NCBI GenBank assembly: GCA_012455605.1 | Contig: GCA_012455605.1_3618.1 | Source: a phage | Reading direction: 5' to 3' (one strand) | Length of the DNA: 64,000 nt | Shown here: positions 38,939 through 46,592 of the stretch, one piece after another | How positions within the stretch are numbered: position 1 is the stretch's first letter | Layout of the letters: each line of letters starts with the position of its first letter | Translations under genes and position numbers: made by a program | The notes under the pieces: generated by a model | Told to the model about the DNA's origin: nothing | Databases searched by the model: none | The model's input: only the letters and a program-made list of their open reading frames with translations

Positions 38939-38971
38939 AACAAGTAAAGCCGGGTGATCCCGGCTATGTTG

Positions 38972-39685
38972 TTAAATATACTCTGTTACATCCTTGAAGC
39001 TTGAAGGCTTCATGATCTTACCTTTACTGTCAATGAATATGATAACTTTATTACCGTTGTAGAATTCTTCCTTAGCAACAAAACCTTCATATCGACCATC
39101 AAAGCGTCGCTCAAGATCTTTAATCTCCAACTCGATGAGTTGTTCAGCAGGCATATCTGCACTGGCACCGTGTGAATGCCGTAGATGGTTGACCCGTGCA
39201 AACTTGCTGTCATTCGATTTGAGAACCTTACGCATCATCCCGCACACATCGCCGCGAAGCTGGAACAGCAAAGCTGTTGACAACTCTGCTAAGCGGTAAG
39301 CAGACGCTCTTTGCTTAGAGGTGTTTTTCGCAGCGATCAGTGTATCATAGAACTCACCAATCTTGAACTTAATACCTCGTGGATTATCAAACAGGTTTGA
39401 CCACTTTTCGTGATTGTCATTAACAAGATAAGCGGCATAACTTGTGACAACATGAAGATCGCAGGCCTCTTTTAGCAAGTGATCTCCACCATCACCTTTC
39501 TCCAGCTCTTCCAAAACTTCATTGAACTCTTCCTCAATGAAGCTAAGCTGTAATTCGAATGGCGTGTATGATTTTTTCACCTTAGCTGCCACACGGTTCC
39601 AGTTTTCCACCCAGTTGGCAGACCAAAGGTAGTTTTCAGGCTGAGACAGTTTTTCCAAGTTGTCGATCAGTTTAGTATTCAGCAT
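38972..39685 (-). CDS. MazG-like nucleotide pyrophosphohydrolase (tentative)
   Basis: SFIEEEFNEVLEELEKGDGGDHLLKEACDL resembles the MazG/HisE EExxE...E..D metal-binding helix. Confidence 0.4.
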   Translation of the reverse strand: MLNTKLIDNLEKLSQPENYLWSANWVENWNRVAAKVKKSYTPFELQLSFIEEEFNEVLEELEKGDGGDHLLKEACDLHVVTSYAAYLVNDNHEKWSNLFDNPRGIKFKIGEFYDTLIAAKNTSKQRASAYRLAELSTALLFQLRGDVCGMMRKVLKSNDSKFARVNHLRHSHGASADMPAEQLIELEIKDLERRFDGRYEGFVAKEEFYNGNKVIIFIDSKGKIMKPSSFKDVTEYI

Positions 39686-39698
39686 TAAAGGTCTCCTT

Positions 39699-40460
39699 TT
39701 AAAGTTCCATAAAGTTTTCTACAGTTTCAATAAATACTTTATCAGAGAAAGCGTCAACAGCACCGTTAAACCATACAGGGATCCCGCGATCCTCATATTG
39801 ATAAAGGTCGCTACGTGAAATGCCACTTCCATCTGCACTCTGCGAATCATACTTGTTTACAATCAGCAGTTTTGTGCCTTTACAAGTAGCAGGAAACAAT
39901 TCCCAGTTAAAATTAATAACTGTGTTAGAACAACCTACCAGGATCACCATATCATTGCTTGTGAGAGATGTCAACAGGTCATACATGTCTGTATACTTAG
40001 GAGCAACCTCACCGAAGAACACTACATTGGGCTTAACCCAGGTATACTTGCCTGTATCTACCTCCGTGTATCCGATATTTTTAATTACATCATTACCTTC
40101 AGCATCTTCGTAGGTGATTTCAGGCAAATACCCGTGGACATGTAAAATATCTTCATGTTTTACACCAGCACGCTCCAGCAAATCATCTACATTGGTGGTA
40201 AGGTTGATCACACGACCAGACCAGCGGGAATACCACTCAGCGATCCGAAGATGTGCAAGGTTAGGATCAACACTGCCCAGAGCTACACGACGTGCATTGT
40301 AAAAGTCATGCACCTTATAGTAGTTCTTGGCAAAGGTGTGGATGTTGCACACCTCATCGATGCTGAAATTCTCCCACATTGCAGTGCTACCAGATCGGAA
40401 AGTGGGAATACCAGATTCAGCGCTCAAACCAGCACCGGAGATAATAATCAGTCGTCGCAT
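39699..40460 (-). CDS. Sir2-family NAD-dependent protein deacylase / ADP-ribosyltransferase
   Basis: ISGAGLSAESGIPTFR (sirtuin Rossmann motif), TTNVDDL, VHG. Confidence 0.8.
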   Translation of the reverse strand: MRRLIIISGAGLSAESGIPTFRSGSTAMWENFSIDEVCNIHTFAKNYYKVHDFYNARRVALGSVDPNLAHLRIAEWYSRWSGRVINLTTNVDDLLERAGVKHEDILHVHGYLPEITYEDAEGNDVIKNIGYTEVDTGKYTWVKPNVVFFGEVAPKYTDMYDLLTSLTSNDMVILVGCSNTVINFNWELFPATCKGTKLLIVNKYDSQSADGSGISRSDLYQYEDRGIPVWFNGAVDAFSDKVFIETVENFMEL

Positions 40461-40468
40461 AAGTGTCC

Positions 40469-40819
40469 TCAGTAGATGTTTTGTTTAATCTCTATTCCAA
40501 ACTTTTTAAACGAGTCAGCTGCAAGCATGAATTTACGAGCCGCTGATGGATTAGAAGTATGTACGAAAATCTTCACGTTGTCAACCACGGGAGGCTTACC
40601 GAATACAAATTTTTCCTCCAACATGGATAGGCAATCATATCCTTCGAATACTTCTCCTAGGTCGTTGTCCATATGCCACTCAGAAACGCGTCTGTAGAGC
40701 TTTCCCTTATCGTTAATAAAATCCATAAACTCGGAGGAATTCTTCAGCCAAACAGCGTCTGGGAGTCCATAATTTGACGGATCTCTCAAATCATCCAGCC
40801 ACACAATCAACTTCTTCAT
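40469..40819 (-). CDS. hypothetical protein with receiver/Rossmann-like N-terminus (MKKLIVWLDDLRDP)
   Basis: ORF; ATGA overlap with the RNA ligase stop; start placed at the internal ATG. Confidence 0.4.
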   Translation of the reverse strand: MKKLIVWLDDLRDPSNYGLPDAVWLKNSSEFMDFINDKGKLYRRVSEWHMDNDLGEVFEGYDCLSMLEEKFVFGKPPVVDNVKIFVHTSNPSAARKFMLAADSFKKFGIEIKQNIY

Positions 40820-41751
40820 TGCATATAGTCCTCGTTGTGGAAATAGTGGTCGAGTATCTCCCTGCGTTCCTGCTCCAGTAGGCAGTTCCACACATCTTCT
40901 GTGTAATTGCTACGAATGAAGTTTACCATGCCGTAAAACTCTTCGTCAACACGTTTAAAGATATCATCATCCCAAATCTTCCAAGCTTTACCCCTCATTA
41001 CGGCCTTCCGTGCCAGATAGTATGGAGACTTGATCTTCAGCTGCAGATCATAAGGGTAGTAAGGCTTACGAATCATATACCCTTCACCTCTTGTTTCTGC
41101 AGCTAATTCTTTTGCATAGCTGAACGGAATTTCACGCACAGTGTGAGGACGTTTTGCACCAAGGTATTTGGCAATCCCATCTAAAGCTGCCTCTGGGAGC
41201 ATTATTCCAGAATCATTATATCTGCAACCTATCAAATATGCGCCATGATCTTCCTGAACAATATGCGGATCTGAAGGGTGACAAATTTCAAACATGAATG
41301 TCATGTTTTCATTGCCCATAACCTTCTTGATAAGATCTAAATTACCACATTGCTCCTGGATGGTTTTCTTTGCGAGGTTACAATATGGGGAATCAAGAGA
41401 TCCGGTTGTTGAGAACAATAGTTCACCTTTATGAGATGATACCACACCGAGGAATCCGTTCTTTTTCTCTACCGCCGTCACAAGCTTATTGTCAGGCAGG
41501 TTGGTGGAATTTTCTCCCAAGTTAAACACTTTTGTGAAGGGCCATGCCACAACATTCCCTTCATTACCGACAACAATGCCTCGGCACTCCAGTAATCGAG
41601 GAGACAAATGCCATAAGTTGTTGTAGAATACTTTTCTGGCATATTTATAGATCTTTAACCCAAGATCTGGGTAATATCTGCTGGTTACAAGACCTTTGTC
41701 AACTAGGTCGTCTGCATTAAAATACTTCATCATACGTTCCTCATTTGTCAT
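40816..41751 (-). CDS. RNA ligase-like nucleotidyltransferase (tentative)
   Basis: EKKNGF (motif I Lys), EGYMIRKP (motif IV), LKIKSPYY (motif V). Confidence 0.5.
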   Translation of the reverse strand: MTNEERMMKYFNADDLVDKGLVTSRYYPDLGLKIYKYARKVFYNNLWHLSPRLLECRGIVVGNEGNVVAWPFTKVFNLGENSTNLPDNKLVTAVEKKNGFLGVVSSHKGELLFSTTGSLDSPYCNLAKKTIQEQCGNLDLIKKVMGNENMTFMFEICHPSDPHIVQEDHGAYLIGCRYNDSGIMLPEAALDGIAKYLGAKRPHTVREIPFSYAKELAAETRGEGYMIRKPYYPYDLQLKIKSPYYLARKAVMRGKAWKIWDDDIFKRVDEEFYGMVNFIRSNYTEDVWNCLLEQERREILDHYFHNEDYMQ

Positions 41752-41794
41752 TTTGTCCCTTTATCCTGCCACACAAATAACCCAGTGTCAACAC

Positions 41795-41823
41795 TTGAAA
41801 TTAACAAAACAGTTAGGTATACT
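41795..41823 (+). promoter_or_regulatory. sigma70-like promoter (TTGAAA-17-TATACT)
   Basis: in the divergent intergenic region upstream of the kinase gene. Confidence 0.5.
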
Positions 41824-41851
41824 ATCATTGAAATTAAAACGGAGGGTTACT

Positions 41852-42259
41852 ATGTCTAAAATGCTATATATCGTGCGTGGTCTACCAGGGTCTGGCAAAT
41901 CAACACTGGCAAATGCGCTATCTTTAGAAGGTCTGTACCCACATTTTGAGAACGACATGTTCTGGTACGACGATGACGGCAATTACAACTGGGATGCAAG
42001 TAAAGTAACACTTGCAGCAAAATGGTGCAAAGATAACGTAGAAGATATGATGCGTATGGGATACGACCGTATCGTGGTAAGTAATACGTTTACAAAAGAA
42101 AAATACGTGCAAAAATATATTGACATGGCAATCAGCTATGGGTATAGTTATACCGTAATCGTGGTTGAAAACCGCCACGGTAATAAAAGCATTCATGCTT
42201 CAGACGAGGTTGTGGATCGTATGGAGCGCCAGCTTAAAAACTGCATCAAACTTAAATGA
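41852..42259 (+). CDS. polynucleotide 5-prime-kinase-like P-loop kinase
   Basis: MLYIVRGLPGSGKST resembles the T4 Pnk kinase N-terminus (ILTIGCPGSGKST); start at ATG after RBS ggaggg. Confidence 0.55.
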   Translation: MSKMLYIVRGLPGSGKSTLANALSLEGLYPHFENDMFWYDDDGNYNWDASKVTLAAKWCKDNVEDMMRMGYDRIVVSNTFTKEKYVQKYIDMAISYGYSYTVIVVENRHGNKSIHASDEVVDRMERQLKNCIKLK

Positions 42260-42266
42260 GGAATGT

Positions 42267-42821
42267 ATGAAATACTTTGTAACAAGCGACACACACTTTC
42301 TCCACCAGCGGGTCATGGAGTTTGATTCATGTCAAAAACACAGATCTCAATATGATCACAATCTTGACAGTATGAATGCGGGAATCATCACCAAGTGGAA
42401 CTCTGTTGTGTCACCTGCAGACACTGTGTTCCACCTGGGAGATATTGCGTGCACTAATGATAAGAATATCAACAACTTACTTCCAGATATTCTAAATATG
42501 TTGAACGGACATATTATTCTTGTTCGTGGCAACCATGACACAAGGACGACTGTCAGAATTATGAAAGAGTTCGGTCATGAGGTTGTAGATTATTACGAGC
42601 TTCGCCACAACAAGAATTTGATCTGTATGAGCCATTACCAGTTTGCAAAGTGGAACAGAAAGCCTCACGGATCAGTCCAACTGTTCGGTCATGCTCACGG
42701 AACCACACAACAGTTGTTTGGCAGACAGCTTGATGTCGGTTGGGATGTGTGGGGGAGACTCTTACCATTAGAAGAGGCATACCGTATTGCAATGAGTTTT
42801 GCTATTGACAGCGGGGAGTAA
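42267..42821 (+). CDS. calcineurin-like metallophosphoesterase
   Basis: SDTHF, GDIA, GNHD and GHAHG metallophosphatase motifs. Confidence 0.65.
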   Translation: MKYFVTSDTHFLHQRVMEFDSCQKHRSQYDHNLDSMNAGIITKWNSVVSPADTVFHLGDIACTNDKNINNLLPDILNMLNGHIILVRGNHDTRTTVRIMKEFGHEVVDYYELRHNKNLICMSHYQFAKWNRKPHGSVQLFGHAHGTTQQLFGRQLDVGWDVWGRLLPLEEAYRIAMSFAIDSGE

Positions 42822-42868
42822 TCCCTGCTATTTTAAAGAAAATTGCCACACAAGGAGAATCAGGAGAT

Positions 42869-43219
42869 ATGAAAGATGGGGATAAGCTGCTATATCTTAA
42901 AGTCCCCCTTGAAATACTGTCTATGTCAAAAGTTTTGAATGACACAACTGGGGAGGTTGTTGTTCTTGACTTGTATGACAAGATCGTATACTGCTACCTG
43001 CACAACTGGTATAAACTTAGAGGAAATTCACGCTTCACACCCAGCACAAGGAAAATTGCAGCAGATGTTGGGATAAAGAAAACAAAAGCAGCAGCGTGCG
43101 TTAAAACTTTAGAATGTGCAGGAGTGGTTGAAACATCCACACAAGGGAGAGGTAAAAGATGCACATTTTCCAAAGTTTTGCCACCAGAAGAAGTTATTCG
43201 GATGTCAACAACTGGTTAG
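42869..43219 (+). CDS. hypothetical protein with HTH-like segment
   Basis: STRKIAADVGIKKTKAAACVKTLECAGVVE looks like a winged-helix/HTH. Confidence 0.4.
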   Translation: MKDGDKLLYLKVPLEILSMSKVLNDTTGEVVVLDLYDKIVYCYLHNWYKLRGNSRFTPSTRKIAADVGIKKTKAAACVKTLECAGVVETSTQGRGKRCTFSKVLPPEEVIRMSTTG

Positions 43220-43294
43220 ACCAGTAAAAACTTAAATATCTGTACTATAAGGATTCGTATGTTTTATGTTCGCCATGGAACGGATACTATTAAC

Positions 43295-43353
43295 TGTCCG
43301 TAATACGGACACTACTGTCCGTCACGCGGACACATCTGCCCGTAATACGGACA
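43295..43353. promoter_or_regulatory. three tandem palindromic operator-like sites at 21 bp spacing
   Basis: TGTCCGTA-A-TACGGACA (43295-43311), TGTCCGT-cac-GCGGACA (43316-43332), TGCCCGTA-A-TACGGACA (43337-43353). Confidence 0.55.
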
Positions 43354-43489
43354 CATAAAGAATATAACTAAAATAACTAAATAATAAAAAATAAAAGATC
43401 TAGTACTTATGGTACTAAGTACATATACTTAACTTATGTAGAATATACTAGATCCTAAGTACCATGTTTTAAATTTATTACTTACTATG

Positions 43490-43740
43490 GGCAGTGTCGG
43501 CCCTTCATTGGCACTCGCCTACGAGGGGCGAGATGCCGGGCCTCCTTGGTGCACACAATAACAGAAGTGCACACATGCAGGTCTGTTAACATGTGTGGGA
43601 GCGAAGCTATAGCGCAGGCCAAAGGCCGAGCACTGATGTGGACCACCGACGAAAGCTTGCCAGCGCCGTAAGGAGTCGGTTGAGAGTCTCCCGCGCGAGC
43701 TTGGATGAAGTTTATGTGTGGAAACTGACAAGAAGGTCCC
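43490..43740 (+). ncRNA. GC-rich structured element, candidate non-coding RNA or regulatory structure (strand unknown)
   Basis: local GC spike in an AT-rich genome; nested hairpins GGCA-CTCGCC...GGCGAG-TGCC, GTGCACACA repeated, CACATG...CATGTG, GGCC-aaa-GGCC; only a low-complexity antisense ORF. Confidence 0.3.
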
Positions 43741-43857
43741 TAAATCGCTCCACAGCTATATAAACTATACCAGGTAATGCAATCGCACCAGTTTGATAGA
43801 AAAGCTCGTTACAAAGCGATACAGTGAGTTTTTCTATAACTTGAAGAGGAGGCAGCT

Positions 43858-44436
43858 ATGGGTTCACGCAAAGATGACCGTGAAAAGATTGCAAAACGTT
43901 ATCAGAATGAAGAACAGATGGAGAAAACTTTCAAGTGGAAGCCAGGTTTCCAGCGTAATCATTCTAACGCTCGTGATCGTAAGCATCCGGATAAGTGGCT
44001 AACACCGCCAAATGATGGCATGCAGGTTGGGGATGAGAAGGAGATGTCGCCTGGAAAAGATGGCAACTACATTCGCACTAAGGACGCTGGTCCAAAGGAT
44101 GACAGCTATCTTGTAGATAAGGTTCTTGATGGTATCAATGTAGATGTTGACACTGCACGAAACCTTTTTCTTGGGTGGTATCGCACAGGTTTTTTCGACA
44201 TCAAGGCTATTCGTCGTGTTTGTGATATTAAAAAGTCTGCATATGATGACGACTCGTTACATCGCACCCTGAGACAATATTCAGAAAGATATGGTCATCC
44301 GGTTATCACTCTTGACGATGTTAACGAAGTGATGTATCATGCAGATGTTGTTGCAGGAAGATTTGGTGATGCATATCTTGATATCCTTTCTGCAAAGGAT
44401 GAGGTAATGTTAAATAAGATTTACTATGAACGCTGA
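43858..44436 (+). CDS. hypothetical protein (192 aa)
   Basis: ORF with strong RBS gaggagg. Confidence 0.5.
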   Translation: MGSRKDDREKIAKRYQNEEQMEKTFKWKPGFQRNHSNARDRKHPDKWLTPPNDGMQVGDEKEMSPGKDGNYIRTKDAGPKDDSYLVDKVLDGINVDVDTARNLFLGWYRTGFFDIKAIRRVCDIKKSAYDDDSLHRTLRQYSERYGHPVITLDDVNEVMYHADVVAGRFGDAYLDILSAKDEVMLNKIYYER

Positions 44437-45733: not shown

Positions 45734-45805
45734 GCCCTGTTAGCTTAGTGGATAAAGCAGCGGCCTTCTAAGCCGTTGACACTGGTTCGAGTCCAGTACG
45801 GGGTG
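45734..45805 (+). tRNA. tRNA-Arg (anticodon TCT)
   Basis: hand-folded cloverleaf: acceptor GCCCTGT/ACGGGGT, anticodon arm GCGGC-cttCTaa-GCCGT, T-arm ACTGG-ttcgagt-CCAGT, encoded CCA. Confidence 0.75.
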
Positions 45806-45812
45806 CCAAATT

Positions 45813-45896
45813 GGGGAGTTATCCCGTAGAGGTAGCGGTGTAGACTGTAAATCTATTGTCATTGCGACTCGGGTGGTTCGACTCCACCACTCCCCA
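45813..45896 (+). tRNA. tRNA-Tyr (anticodon GTA)
   Basis: acceptor GGGGAGT/ACTCCCC, anticodon arm with CTGTAAATCT as in E. coli tRNA-Tyr, long variable arm, encoded CCA. Confidence 0.7.
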
Positions 45897-46013
45897 CCAA
45901 ATTTATATTTTTAGATGCATAAATAATACAGATAATGGCATTGATATTTATCGTCGTTTATACTAGTCACTAACTGCTCGAAAATCAGTGTCATTATCAG
46001 TATAATTTATAAA

Positions 46014-46101
46014 GGAGGGTAGGGAGCAATGGTGCTCAAGCGGTCTTGAAAACCGTCCCGTTGAGGATGACTCGATGATGGTTCGATTCCATTACTCTCC
46101 G
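46014..46101 (+). tRNA. tRNA-Ser (anticodon TGA)
   Basis: acceptor GGAGGGT/ACTCTCC, anticodon arm GCGGT-cttgaaa-ACCGT, long variable arm, discriminator G, encoded CCA. Confidence 0.7.
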
Positions 46102-46202
46102 CCACATTGTTGACCTTGTAATTAAGCGAAAGCCGGAAGCAGAACCGGATTATCAAATGTTACAGTCGTCATCGCCGACTAGCAACATGGTCAACATACT
46201 GA

Positions 46203-46299
46203 GCTAGGTAAGCCCTTTGGCAAGGGCGAGGATTTTTAATCCTGAAAATAGACGAGGTAGTCGTTGAATACATAGGTGGTTCGATTCCATCACCTAGCA
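46203..46299 (+). tRNA. aberrant tRNA-like gene (Leu-type body, non-canonical anticodon loop; possible pseudo-tRNA)
   Basis: acceptor GCTAGGT/ACCTAGC, D-arm GCCC-tttggcaa-GGGC, T-arm GGTGG-ttcgatt-CCATC, discriminator A; anticodon region AGGAT-tttta-ATCCT has a 5-nt loop (or UUU in the alternative fold); over-long variable region; no encoded CCA. Confidence 0.4.
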
Positions 46300-46306
46300 C
46301 CTTTTT

Positions 46307-46379
46307 GCTGATGTAGCACAATCGGTAGTGCAATTGATTTGTAATCAATAGGTTGTAGGTTCAAGTCCTGCCATCAGCA
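46307..46379 (+). tRNA. tRNA-Thr (anticodon TGT)
   Basis: acceptor GCTGATG/CATCAGC, anticodon arm ATTGA-tttgtaa-TCAAT, encoded CCA. Confidence 0.75.
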
Positions 46380-46383
46380 CCAA

Positions 46384-46455
46384 GGCCCTGTAGCTGGAAG
46401 GTTCAAGCAAGCGACTCATAATCGCCAGACGGTGGTTCAATTCCACCCAGGGCCA
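46384..46455 (+). tRNA. tRNA-Met or Ile2 (anticodon CAT)
   Basis: acceptor GGCCCTG/CAGGGCC, anticodon loop ctCATaa, T-arm GGTGG-ttcaatt-CCACC, encoded CCA. Confidence 0.7.
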
Positions 46456-46469
46456 CCAAATAATAAATA

Positions 46470-46543
46470 CTCCGCGTAGCTCAGCTTGGTAGAGCGCCTG
46501 ATTTGGGATCAGGAGGTCGAGTGTTCGAATCACTCCGTGGAGA
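46470..46543 (+). tRNA. tRNA-Pro (anticodon TGG)
   Basis: acceptor CTCCGCG/CGTGGAG, anticodon arm CCTGA-tttggga-TCAGG, encoded CCA. Confidence 0.75.
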
Positions 46544-46592
46544 CCACTTTCAGTTATACTTTAAACATATACAAACAAAAGGAACCTTTAAA

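Follow-up and report, generated by a model that had tools for sequence, protein, structure and literature searches.

Organization of the locus

We analysed a stretch of 64,000 nucleotides (nt) of phage DNA (contig GCA_012455605.1_3618.1 of the NCBI GenBank assembly GCA_012455605.1; this whole stretch is hereafter referred to as the window), with a focus on three neighbouring genes predicted to encode an RNA ligase, a polynucleotide kinase and a phosphoesterase. The window derives from a Vequintavirus, that is, an rV5-like myophage of Escherichia coli. The 4.4 kb around the three genes are 98% identical to Escherichia phage JES2013, and at least 80% of this region is covered by 118 phage records.

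The ligase open reading frame (ORF) occupies positions 40816 to 41751 of the minus strand and encodes 311 amino acids (aa) when read from its first ATG; a second ATG, at 41733, is preceded by the Shine-Dalgarno sequence GAGGA and leads to the product of 305 aa that is annotated in the BASEL records. The plus strand carries the gene of a stand-alone P-loop kinase (41852 to 42259; 135 aa) and, starting 7 nt past the kinase stop codon, the gene of a calcineurin-type metallophosphoesterase (42267 to 42821; 184 aa). The divergent intergenic region between ligase and kinase (41752 to 41851) contains a promoter-like site for the plus-strand genes (TTGAAA-17-TATACT, at 41795 to 41823) and a strong ribosome-binding site, GGAGGG, before the kinase. 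No sigma-70-like minus-strand promoter for the ligase was found in these 100 nt, candidates being located only inside the ligase ORF. From about 16 kb into the window up to position 41751 all long ORFs lie on the minus strand, from position 41852 onward all of them lie on the plus strand, and the GC skew flips at this point. The ligase and kinase genes are thus divergent because each is the first gene of one of two long and opposed gene arrays.

A first-pass annotation, made from the letters and their ORFs, had described positions 40816 to 42821 as a split set of RNA-repair genes. The three ORFs are present where it had placed them, and all the motifs that it quoted (EKKNGF, EGYMIRKP and LKIKSPYY for the ligase, GLPGSGKST for the kinase, and SDTHF, GDIA, GNHD and GHAHG for the phosphoesterase) occur in the translations. 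The span that it proposed proved too narrow, as it missed three further genes, coding for cREC, Sir2 and MazG-like proteins, which are described below.

Family assignment of the three proteins

The ligase scores 56.2 bits against PF09511 (gathering cut-off, 28.3) and covers profile positions 1 to 227 of 227, so that the earlier ligase call holds and the protein does not fall outside the ligase superfamily. Comparison of the single ligase and kinase sequences with the Protein Data Bank (PDB) by phmmer returned nothing meaningful, and family profiles were required. With a profile built from 34 homologues, the ligase family matches T4 Rnl1 (2C5U; E = 8e-13) over the entire nucleotidyltransferase domain. 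In an alignment with T4 Rnl1, ligase residues K96/G99, E155, E223/G224 and K239/K241 correspond to K99/G102, E159, E227/G228 and K240/K242 of T4, respectively, and the residues of motif I (KxxG), the Glu of motif III, the EG of motif IV and the KxK of motif V are invariant among the 34 homologues. Ten of the 12 residues that we take to be essential in T4 Rnl1, including the adenylylated lysine (K99 in T4, K96 in the phage ligase), are kept in the phage ligase and invariant in its family. A fold test placed the phage ligase nearest to structures of the Rnl1 clade, and not to Rnl2 to Rnl5 or to DNA ligases. Based on the profile, structure and fold searches, the 311-aa protein is a member of the Rnl1 clade of ATP-dependent RNA ligases; it is nearly equally similar to the ligase domain of fungal Trl1 (Trl1-LIG).

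The kinase consists of a single domain matching PF13671 (AAA_33; 40.8 bits, cut-off 27; E = 3.5e-10), and it also matches phrog_505, annotated as polynucleotide kinase (E = 3.6e-10). The profile of its family matches Pnkp1, T4 Pnk, PSTK and the kinase domain of Clostridium thermocellum Pnkp (CthPnkp). An AlphaFold2 model of the protein (mean confidence score, pLDDT, 83.5) was compared with solved structures by Foldseek, which returned, by template modelling (TM) score, the CthPnkp kinase (0.78), T4 Pnk (0.78), PSTK (0.72) and Pnkp1 (0.71), while small-molecule kinases gave 0.46 to 0.63. These results agree with the first-pass description of a kinase resembling that of T4 Pnk. The P-loop GLPGSGKST (K16, S17) and D35 vary little or not at all among the 34 homologues, and D35 aligns with the general base of T4 Pnk, Asp35, in a profile alignment to 1LY1. 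The family has, in addition, invariant residues of its own (E106-N107-R108-H109 and H115). Judging from model and profiles, the nearest relatives of the 135-aa kinase are polynucleotide 5'-kinases, and it is predicted to act on 5' ends.

None of the eight neighbouring proteins encoded between 38972 and 44436 matched the HAD family, and no DxDxT domain is fused to the kinase. The remark in the first-pass annotation that a metallophosphatase stands here in place of the HAD-type phosphatase of T4 is thus correct, and the arrangement mirrors that of bacterial Pnkp (PMC3675462). A PADLOC scan gave weak P-loop matches for the kinase only and none for the other proteins of the module, so that there is no sign of defence genes in it.

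The phosphoesterase scores 28.9 bits against PF12850 (cut-off 27) and 28.0 bits against PF00149 (cut-off 21.5), as anticipated from its calcineurin-type motifs, and matches phrog_547 with E = 1.9e-51. Residues D8/H10, G58/D59, G88/N89/H90, H123 and G141/H142/H144 show no or almost no variation across 34 homologues; the set of metal ligands is complete, and the wild-type D-x-H motif is kept. In a profile search of the PDB, the nearest solved relative was Aquifex aq_1665 (1XM7; E = 2.5e-23), followed weakly by GpdQ and YfcE. On these sequence comparisons, the 184-aa protein is assigned to the calcineurin-type binuclear metallophosphoesterases, within an aq_1665-like subfamily, and its presumed role is the healing of 2',3'-phosphate ends.

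Linkage of the three genes across phages

We extended the analysis to 86 loci with relatives of the ligase, taken from 6 GenBank phages and 80 IMG/VR sequences, in which ORFs were called and searched with profiles. The kinase hidden Markov model used for this purpose was derived from a kinase-only alignment by means of domain coordinates. Clustering of the ligases at 80% identity gave 53 lineages from other phages, to which the following counts refer. A kinase gene lies within 1 kb of the ligase, or is fused to it, in 44 of the 53 lineages; in 46 a phosphoesterase gene is at most 2 kb away, and 40 lineages have both partners. By chance, a gene present once in a genome of 100 to 150 kb would be expected so close in about 2% of cases, and the linkage of the trio is therefore far beyond chance. 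In comparison, cREC was found in 6/53, Sir2 in 7/53 and MazG-like genes in 8/53 lineages. The Sir2-bearing lineages form one related group, and each of those sampled keeps the phosphoesterase beside the ligase. It appears from this distribution that the ligase-kinase-phosphoesterase trio is a widespread core, to which Sir2, cREC and MazG-like genes are lineage-restricted additions. The module was found in Vequintavirinae, Stephanstirmvirinae, Pakpunavirus, Otagovirus, Cetovirus and many uncultured phages.

The order of the genes is variable, being phosphoesterase-ligase-kinase in Phapecoctavirus, ligase-kinase-phosphoesterase in Cetovirus and kinase-ligase-phosphoesterase in many uncultured phages. 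The trio is co-directional nearly everywhere. The split and divergent layout noted in the first-pass annotation is present in the window, but it was seen in Vequintavirus only; it is a local rearrangement at the strand-switch point and not a general trait of the module. Two further kinds of association were observed: (i) 12 loci encode kinase and ligase as a single polypeptide, and two database proteins (P0291 and P0322) are fusions of phosphoesterase and kinase, and (ii) in freshwater phage contigs, a homologous kinase-phosphoesterase pair with overlapping genes lies 1.8 kb from an RNA ligase of another family (PF09414). Linkage that persists through rearrangement, together with pairwise fusions and the swapping of ligase families, argues for one functional module. 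The view that kinase and phosphoesterase are its "healing" half and the ligase its "sealing" half is well supported by these gene comparisons, and the heal-and-seal gene set put forward earlier on the basis of predicted activities gains from the 40/53 lineages with both partners and from the fusions.

In three unrelated genera (Otagovirus psageK4e, Pakpunavirus C11 and Cetovirus Ceto), the trio adjoins genes for nicotinamide phosphoribosyltransferase (NAMPT) and ribose-phosphate pyrophosphokinase, which belong to NAD+ salvage. This neighbourhood suggests either that the trio is tied to NAD+ or that these phages share an island of counter-defence genes.

A predicted RNA end-healing and end-sealing module

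From the family assignments and the linkage data we infer that the three genes probably form an RNA end-healing and end-sealing module of the T4 type, directed at RNA broken by metal-independent ribonucleases. According to this proposal, the kinase would phosphorylate the 5'-OH end of the broken RNA; the phosphoesterase would hydrolyse the 2',3'-cyclic phosphate (or a 3'- or 2'-phosphate) and leave a 3'-OH/2'-OH end; the ligase would adenylylate itself on Lys96, transfer the AMP to the 5'-phosphate (through ligase-AMP and AppRNA) and seal the break. The substrates would most likely be tRNAs, of host or phage, that have been cut by metal-independent ribonucleases of defence or toxin systems, and the module may thus serve in counter-defence. 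RNA-cutting defences are common in E. coli and include PrrC, RloC, PARIS, retron-associated nucleases, HEPN and toxin RNases, and Cas13. A precedent for the combination of a kinase with a metallophosphoesterase is offered by CthPnkp, with which tRNA ends were healed in vitro for subsequent sealing by T4 Rnl1 (PMC1920235; PMC3675462).

Several points weigh against this proposal. On the side of the ligase, the equivalog model of T4 RnlA (TIGR02308) was not reached (39.5 bits against a cut-off of 242.25; profile positions 32 to 251 of 373), and about 70 residues follow motif V, compared with about 130 in T4, which means that the T4-type C-terminal domain is reduced. With regard to the kinase, no equivalent of T4 Arg38 was found in the profile alignment, in which this residue sits in an insertion, and T4 Asp85 is not matched, the aligned position being occupied by the invariant Asn78. 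The nearest solved relative of the phosphoesterase, aq_1665, is itself uncharacterised; the phosphatase domain of CthPnkp and lambda phosphatase gave no match at E <= 0.1 in the PDB profile search, which marks the phage protein as a different subtype. No biochemical assay of any member of these ligase, kinase and phosphoesterase subfamilies was found in the searched literature. Furthermore, an ATP-dependent DNA ligase is encoded in the window about 2.5 kb from the module, which gives a role at DNA ends a small probability.

A last point of this kind comes from the HIDEN-SEQ preprint on the Vequintavirus Bas54, where, in the rows of one listed comparison, the orthologous genes bas54_0206 to bas54_0211 showed no significant depletion or change (adjusted p 0.75 to 1.0). 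Mean transposon-insertion counts listed there for these genes range from 88 to 406, compared with about 13 for the adjacent regulator bas54_0212. As far as these listed data go, the six orthologues are dispensable in E. coli K-12. Tolerance of insertions fits an accessory module used in conflict, and it argues against an essential role of the ligase in tail-fibre assembly. Public records often label the ligase "RNA ligase and tail fiber attachment catalyst"; tail-fibre attachment was considered as its primary function and rejected, the Bas54 orthologue being dispensable.

The same label enters into a quite different explanation, in which the genes would act on small molecules in the conflict over NAD+ or nucleotide signals, for instance by degrading immune signals derived from cyclic nucleotides or ADP-ribose, and the ligase would mainly be a tail-fibre attachment factor, in analogy to the second function of T4 gp63. 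In its favour, NAD+/ADP-ribose networks include Sir2, cREC and MazG-like proteins (PMC9503650), and the NAD+ salvage genes described above adjoin the trio in three other phage genera. On the other hand, the Bas54 ligase orthologue tolerates insertions in the listed data and would thus be unneeded for infective virions, the catalytic residues of the ligase are all invariant across its family, and fusions of kinase and ligase are hard to square with a kinase of small molecules. That the structural neighbours of the kinase are polynucleotide and tRNA kinases, taken together with its fusions to ligase or phosphoesterase, likewise argues against a purely small-molecule role, and we consider this explanation highly improbable.

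Somewhat less remote, albeit still improbable in our estimate, is that kinase and phosphoesterase heal DNA ends (5'-OH and 3'-phosphate), arising from host nucleases or from replication and recombination, on behalf of the nearby ATP-dependent DNA ligase, with the RNA ligase as an unrelated neighbour. Vequintavirus, Phapecoctavirus and Pakpunavirus all encode such a DNA ligase no more than a few kb away; T4 Pnkp and the CthPnkp kinase also act on DNA, complexes with DNA product having been solved (4MDE); and the phosphoesterase weakly resembles the ligase-associated DNA-damage endonuclease PdeM, with an E-value of 2.6e-4 and a score under the cut-off. The tight partner across lineages is nevertheless the RNA ligase, through adjacent or overlapping genes and through kinase-RNA ligase fusions, whereas the DNA ligase is encoded farther off and at varying distances. 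In phages without the Rnl1-type ligase, moreover, kinase and phosphoesterase are encoded near an RNA ligase of another family. Both of these explanations are weaker than the sirtuin-dependent one, which is discussed in the next section with the genes that bear on it.

Accessory genes and a proposed sirtuin-dependent route

A four-gene unit on the minus strand begins with the ligase and continues with cREC, Sir2 and MazG-like genes. The start codon of the cREC gene (40469 to 40819; 116 aa) and the ligase stop codon overlap as ATGA, and the cREC gene is followed, after gaps of 8 and 13 nt, by the genes for Sir2 (39699 to 40460; 253 aa) and the MazG-like protein (38972 to 39685; 237 aa). The unit is closed by a terminator-like GC-rich hairpin at 38948 to 38965, located 7 nt past the MazG-like stop codon, with a stem of 7 bp (6 GC pairs), a loop of 4 nt and a T-rich tail on both strands. 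The co-directional group of ligase, cREC, Sir2 and MazG-like genes is a feature of Vequintavirus and its relatives of about 145 kb.

The cREC product matches PF20274, the cyclic-phosphate-processing receiver-like domain (54.8 bits, cut-off 27; E = 1.5e-14), and carries WLDD after strand 1 and MDNDLG further on, at the acidic positions of receiver domains; catalytic activity is a prediction for this protein as for the whole cREC family. The second accessory protein is a class III sirtuin-like Sir2 (PF02146; 98.2 bits, E = 7e-28), which stays below every NCBIfam CobB equivalog cut-off and whose nearest solved structure is E. coli CobB (1S5P; E = 3.3e-21). Conserved in it are the class III Y-x-x-R motif (YNAR), the NAD motif GAGLSAESGIPTFR and the catalytic His, which lies in HVHG; of the four zinc-ribbon cysteines of CobB, none was found when it was aligned with 1S5P. 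The loss of these cysteines indicates that the phage Sir2 is no standard CobB. The third protein, a nucleotide pyrophosphohydrolase of MazG-like type, gave no Pfam or NCBIfam match, its assignment coming only from phrog_671 (E = 1.1e-21). The role of these three proteins is probably to make further kinds of damaged ends amenable to cleaning, or to remove by-products.

A more specific role has been proposed by Iyer et al. 2022 (PMC9503650) in the form of a sirtuin-dependent pathway of the eukaryal type. In this scheme, cREC would open the 2',3'-cyclic phosphate to a 2'-phosphate/3'-OH end, the kinase would generate the 5'-phosphate, and the Rnl1/Trl1-like ligase would seal the break, leaving a 2'-phosphate at the junction. 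Sir2 would then move the junction phosphate to NAD+, in the manner of KptA/Tpt1, and the MazG-like protein and/or the phosphoesterase would degrade the resulting ADP-ribose cyclic-phosphate. The tight minus-strand unit, with its ATGA overlap, short gaps and terminal hairpin, speaks for such a route, as do the co-occurrence of the four genes in 6 to 8 related lineages, the retention of NAD-binding and catalytic residues by a Sir2 that has lost its zinc-ribbon cysteines, and the near-equal similarity of the ligase to fungal Trl1-LIG. In CthPnkp, moreover, replacement of His by Asp in the DxH motif redirects repair to a 2'-phosphate end, which the yeast tRNA ligase alone can join (PMC1920235), so that one residue of a metallophosphoesterase healing enzyme switches between T4-type and yeast-type repair.

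The phage phosphoesterase, however, retains the wild-type D-x-H motif, and every sampled Sir2-bearing lineage keeps it next to the ligase. In the survey, 46 of the 53 ligase lineages are without Sir2, and most are without cREC, while kinase and phosphoesterase are kept, which implies that the ligase family does not generally depend on a 2'-phosphate route; besides, sirtuins are not known to act on an RNA 2'-phosphate. We therefore think it unlikely that the sirtuin-dependent pathway is the principal route in this phage, and we regard it as an add-on route in Vequintavirus rather than the general mode of the ligase family.

A bolder and, in our view, doubtful extension has two parts. It supposes that the Vequintavirus operon encodes a second, NAD+-dependent route, with the zinc-less sirtuin as a 2'-phosphotransferase (a Tpt1/KptA analogue), cREC as a cyclic phosphodiesterase and a Trl1-like ligase; if this were true, the phage would carry a eukaryote-style tRNA ligation pathway assembled from unrelated parts. 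Separately, it supposes that the kinase of about 130 aa and the aq_1665-type phosphoesterase, a widespread pair with thousands of homologues, are an unrecognised split equivalent of Pnkp that can pair with different families of RNA ligases.

Nearby tRNA genes, repeats and record labels

A cluster of tRNA genes is located at 45734 to 46546 of the window. One of its members, at 46203 to 46299 (plus strand; 97 nt), was given no type by ARAGORN; in the Rfam alignment its anticodon loop is UUUUUAA, which reads as tRNA-Lys(UUU), and about 27 nt are inserted in the variable region. A long variable arm is unusual for a lysine tRNA, and it is tRNA-Lys(UUU) that PrrC-type anticodon nucleases attack. This putative tRNA-Lys(UUU) gene lies 3.4 kb from the repair module. 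Another member, at 46014 to 46104 (plus strand), was called Ser(TGA) by ARAGORN, scores below the Rfam tRNA gathering score and has its best match with the tRNA-Sec model (41.5 bits, threshold 47 bits); it probably belongs to the class II tRNAs, with their long variable arm.

Just downstream of a helix-turn-helix gene (42869 to 43219), a palindromic unit of 19 nt, CTGTCCGTAATACGGACAC, occurs in three copies with a spacing of 21 nt (43294 to 43354). Annotations call the gene a "transcriptional regulator" or a "replication initiation protein", and its Bas54 orthologue tolerates far fewer insertions than its neighbours in the HIDEN-SEQ counts listed. Operators, iterons and tandem hairpin terminators are all possible readings of the repeats.

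Among the public records, 18 entries named "Campylobacter phage" (within GenBank MG065635 to MG065690; host given as Campylobacter jejuni) are 97 to 98% identical to this E. coli rV5-like region. Either this host label is wrong or the samples were contaminated, one or the other being probable.

Comparison with known systems

The closest functional parallel is T4 Pnkp with Rnl1, the counter to PrrC, for which the same three chemistries as those predicted here are on record and which shares with the phage module the kinase fold, the P-loop and the Asp general base. To our knowledge, it is the only repair answer of a phage that has been shown by experiment. Unlike T4, the phage module has no HAD (DxDxT) phosphatase and relies on a stand-alone kinase of 135 aa and a metallophosphoesterase; its ligase fails the RnlA equivalog model and has a much shorter C-terminal region, and its kinase is without Arg38.

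Bacterial Pnkp-Hen1 systems offer the same combination of activities, with kinase, metallophosphoesterase and ligase in the single polypeptide of CthPnkp (PMC3675462; PMC1920235), and the CthPnkp kinase is the best structural match of the phage kinase. In contrast to CthPnkp, the phage module is distributed over three separate genes and its phosphoesterase is aq_1665-like, not lambda-phosphatase-like. No methyltransferase family, and hence no Hen1 partner, was found among the eight neighbouring proteins encoded from 38972 to 44436. If Sir2 and cREC act as proposed, the logic of the pathway would also be that of the fungal and plant tRNA ligase Trl1 (ligase, kinase and cyclic phosphodiesterase) with Tpt1, in which the 2'-phosphate at the junction is removed at the expense of NAD+; the phage module differs in having neither a 2H cyclic phosphodiesterase nor Tpt1/KptA, and its kinase is not of the Trl1 type as judged from the best matches. 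By sequence and fold, the architecture is a hybrid one, consisting, on separate polypeptides, of a T4-like ligase of the Rnl1 clade, a CthPnkp/T4-like kinase and a Pnkp-like metallophosphoesterase of another subfamily.

The locus as such is already known, GenBank records naming an RNA ligase, a polynucleotide kinase and a phosphoesterase, and its interpretation has been published. Iyer et al. 2022 (PMC9503650, section 3.7.3) described a neighbourhood in Escherichia phage V5 and Proteus phage Mydo that is the same locus, V5 being of the same genus; for V5 they listed a sirtuin, a T4-like tRNA ligase, cREC, a nucleotide kinase, a MazG pyrophosphatase and a calcineurin-like phosphoesterase, and predicted an RNA-repair system. 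As a discovery from the window, the module therefore adds little. Their account is centred on the sirtuin and treats the phosphoesterase as "occasional", whereas in our survey the trio is the core in 40/53 lineages.

What the present analysis adds to these known systems is that (i) the trio, and not the sirtuin set, is the core, (ii) fusions tie the trio together, (iii) the healing pair also occurs with a second ligase family, and (iv) the phosphoesterase belongs to an uncharacterised subfamily. The module would bear on the function of two very large protein families and on how rV5-like phages that are candidates for therapy escape tRNA-targeting immunity. Compared with T4 Pnkp and Rnl1, it may represent the core of a much more widespread solution to RNA-cutting defence, built from a minimal kinase and this subfamily of phosphoesterases.

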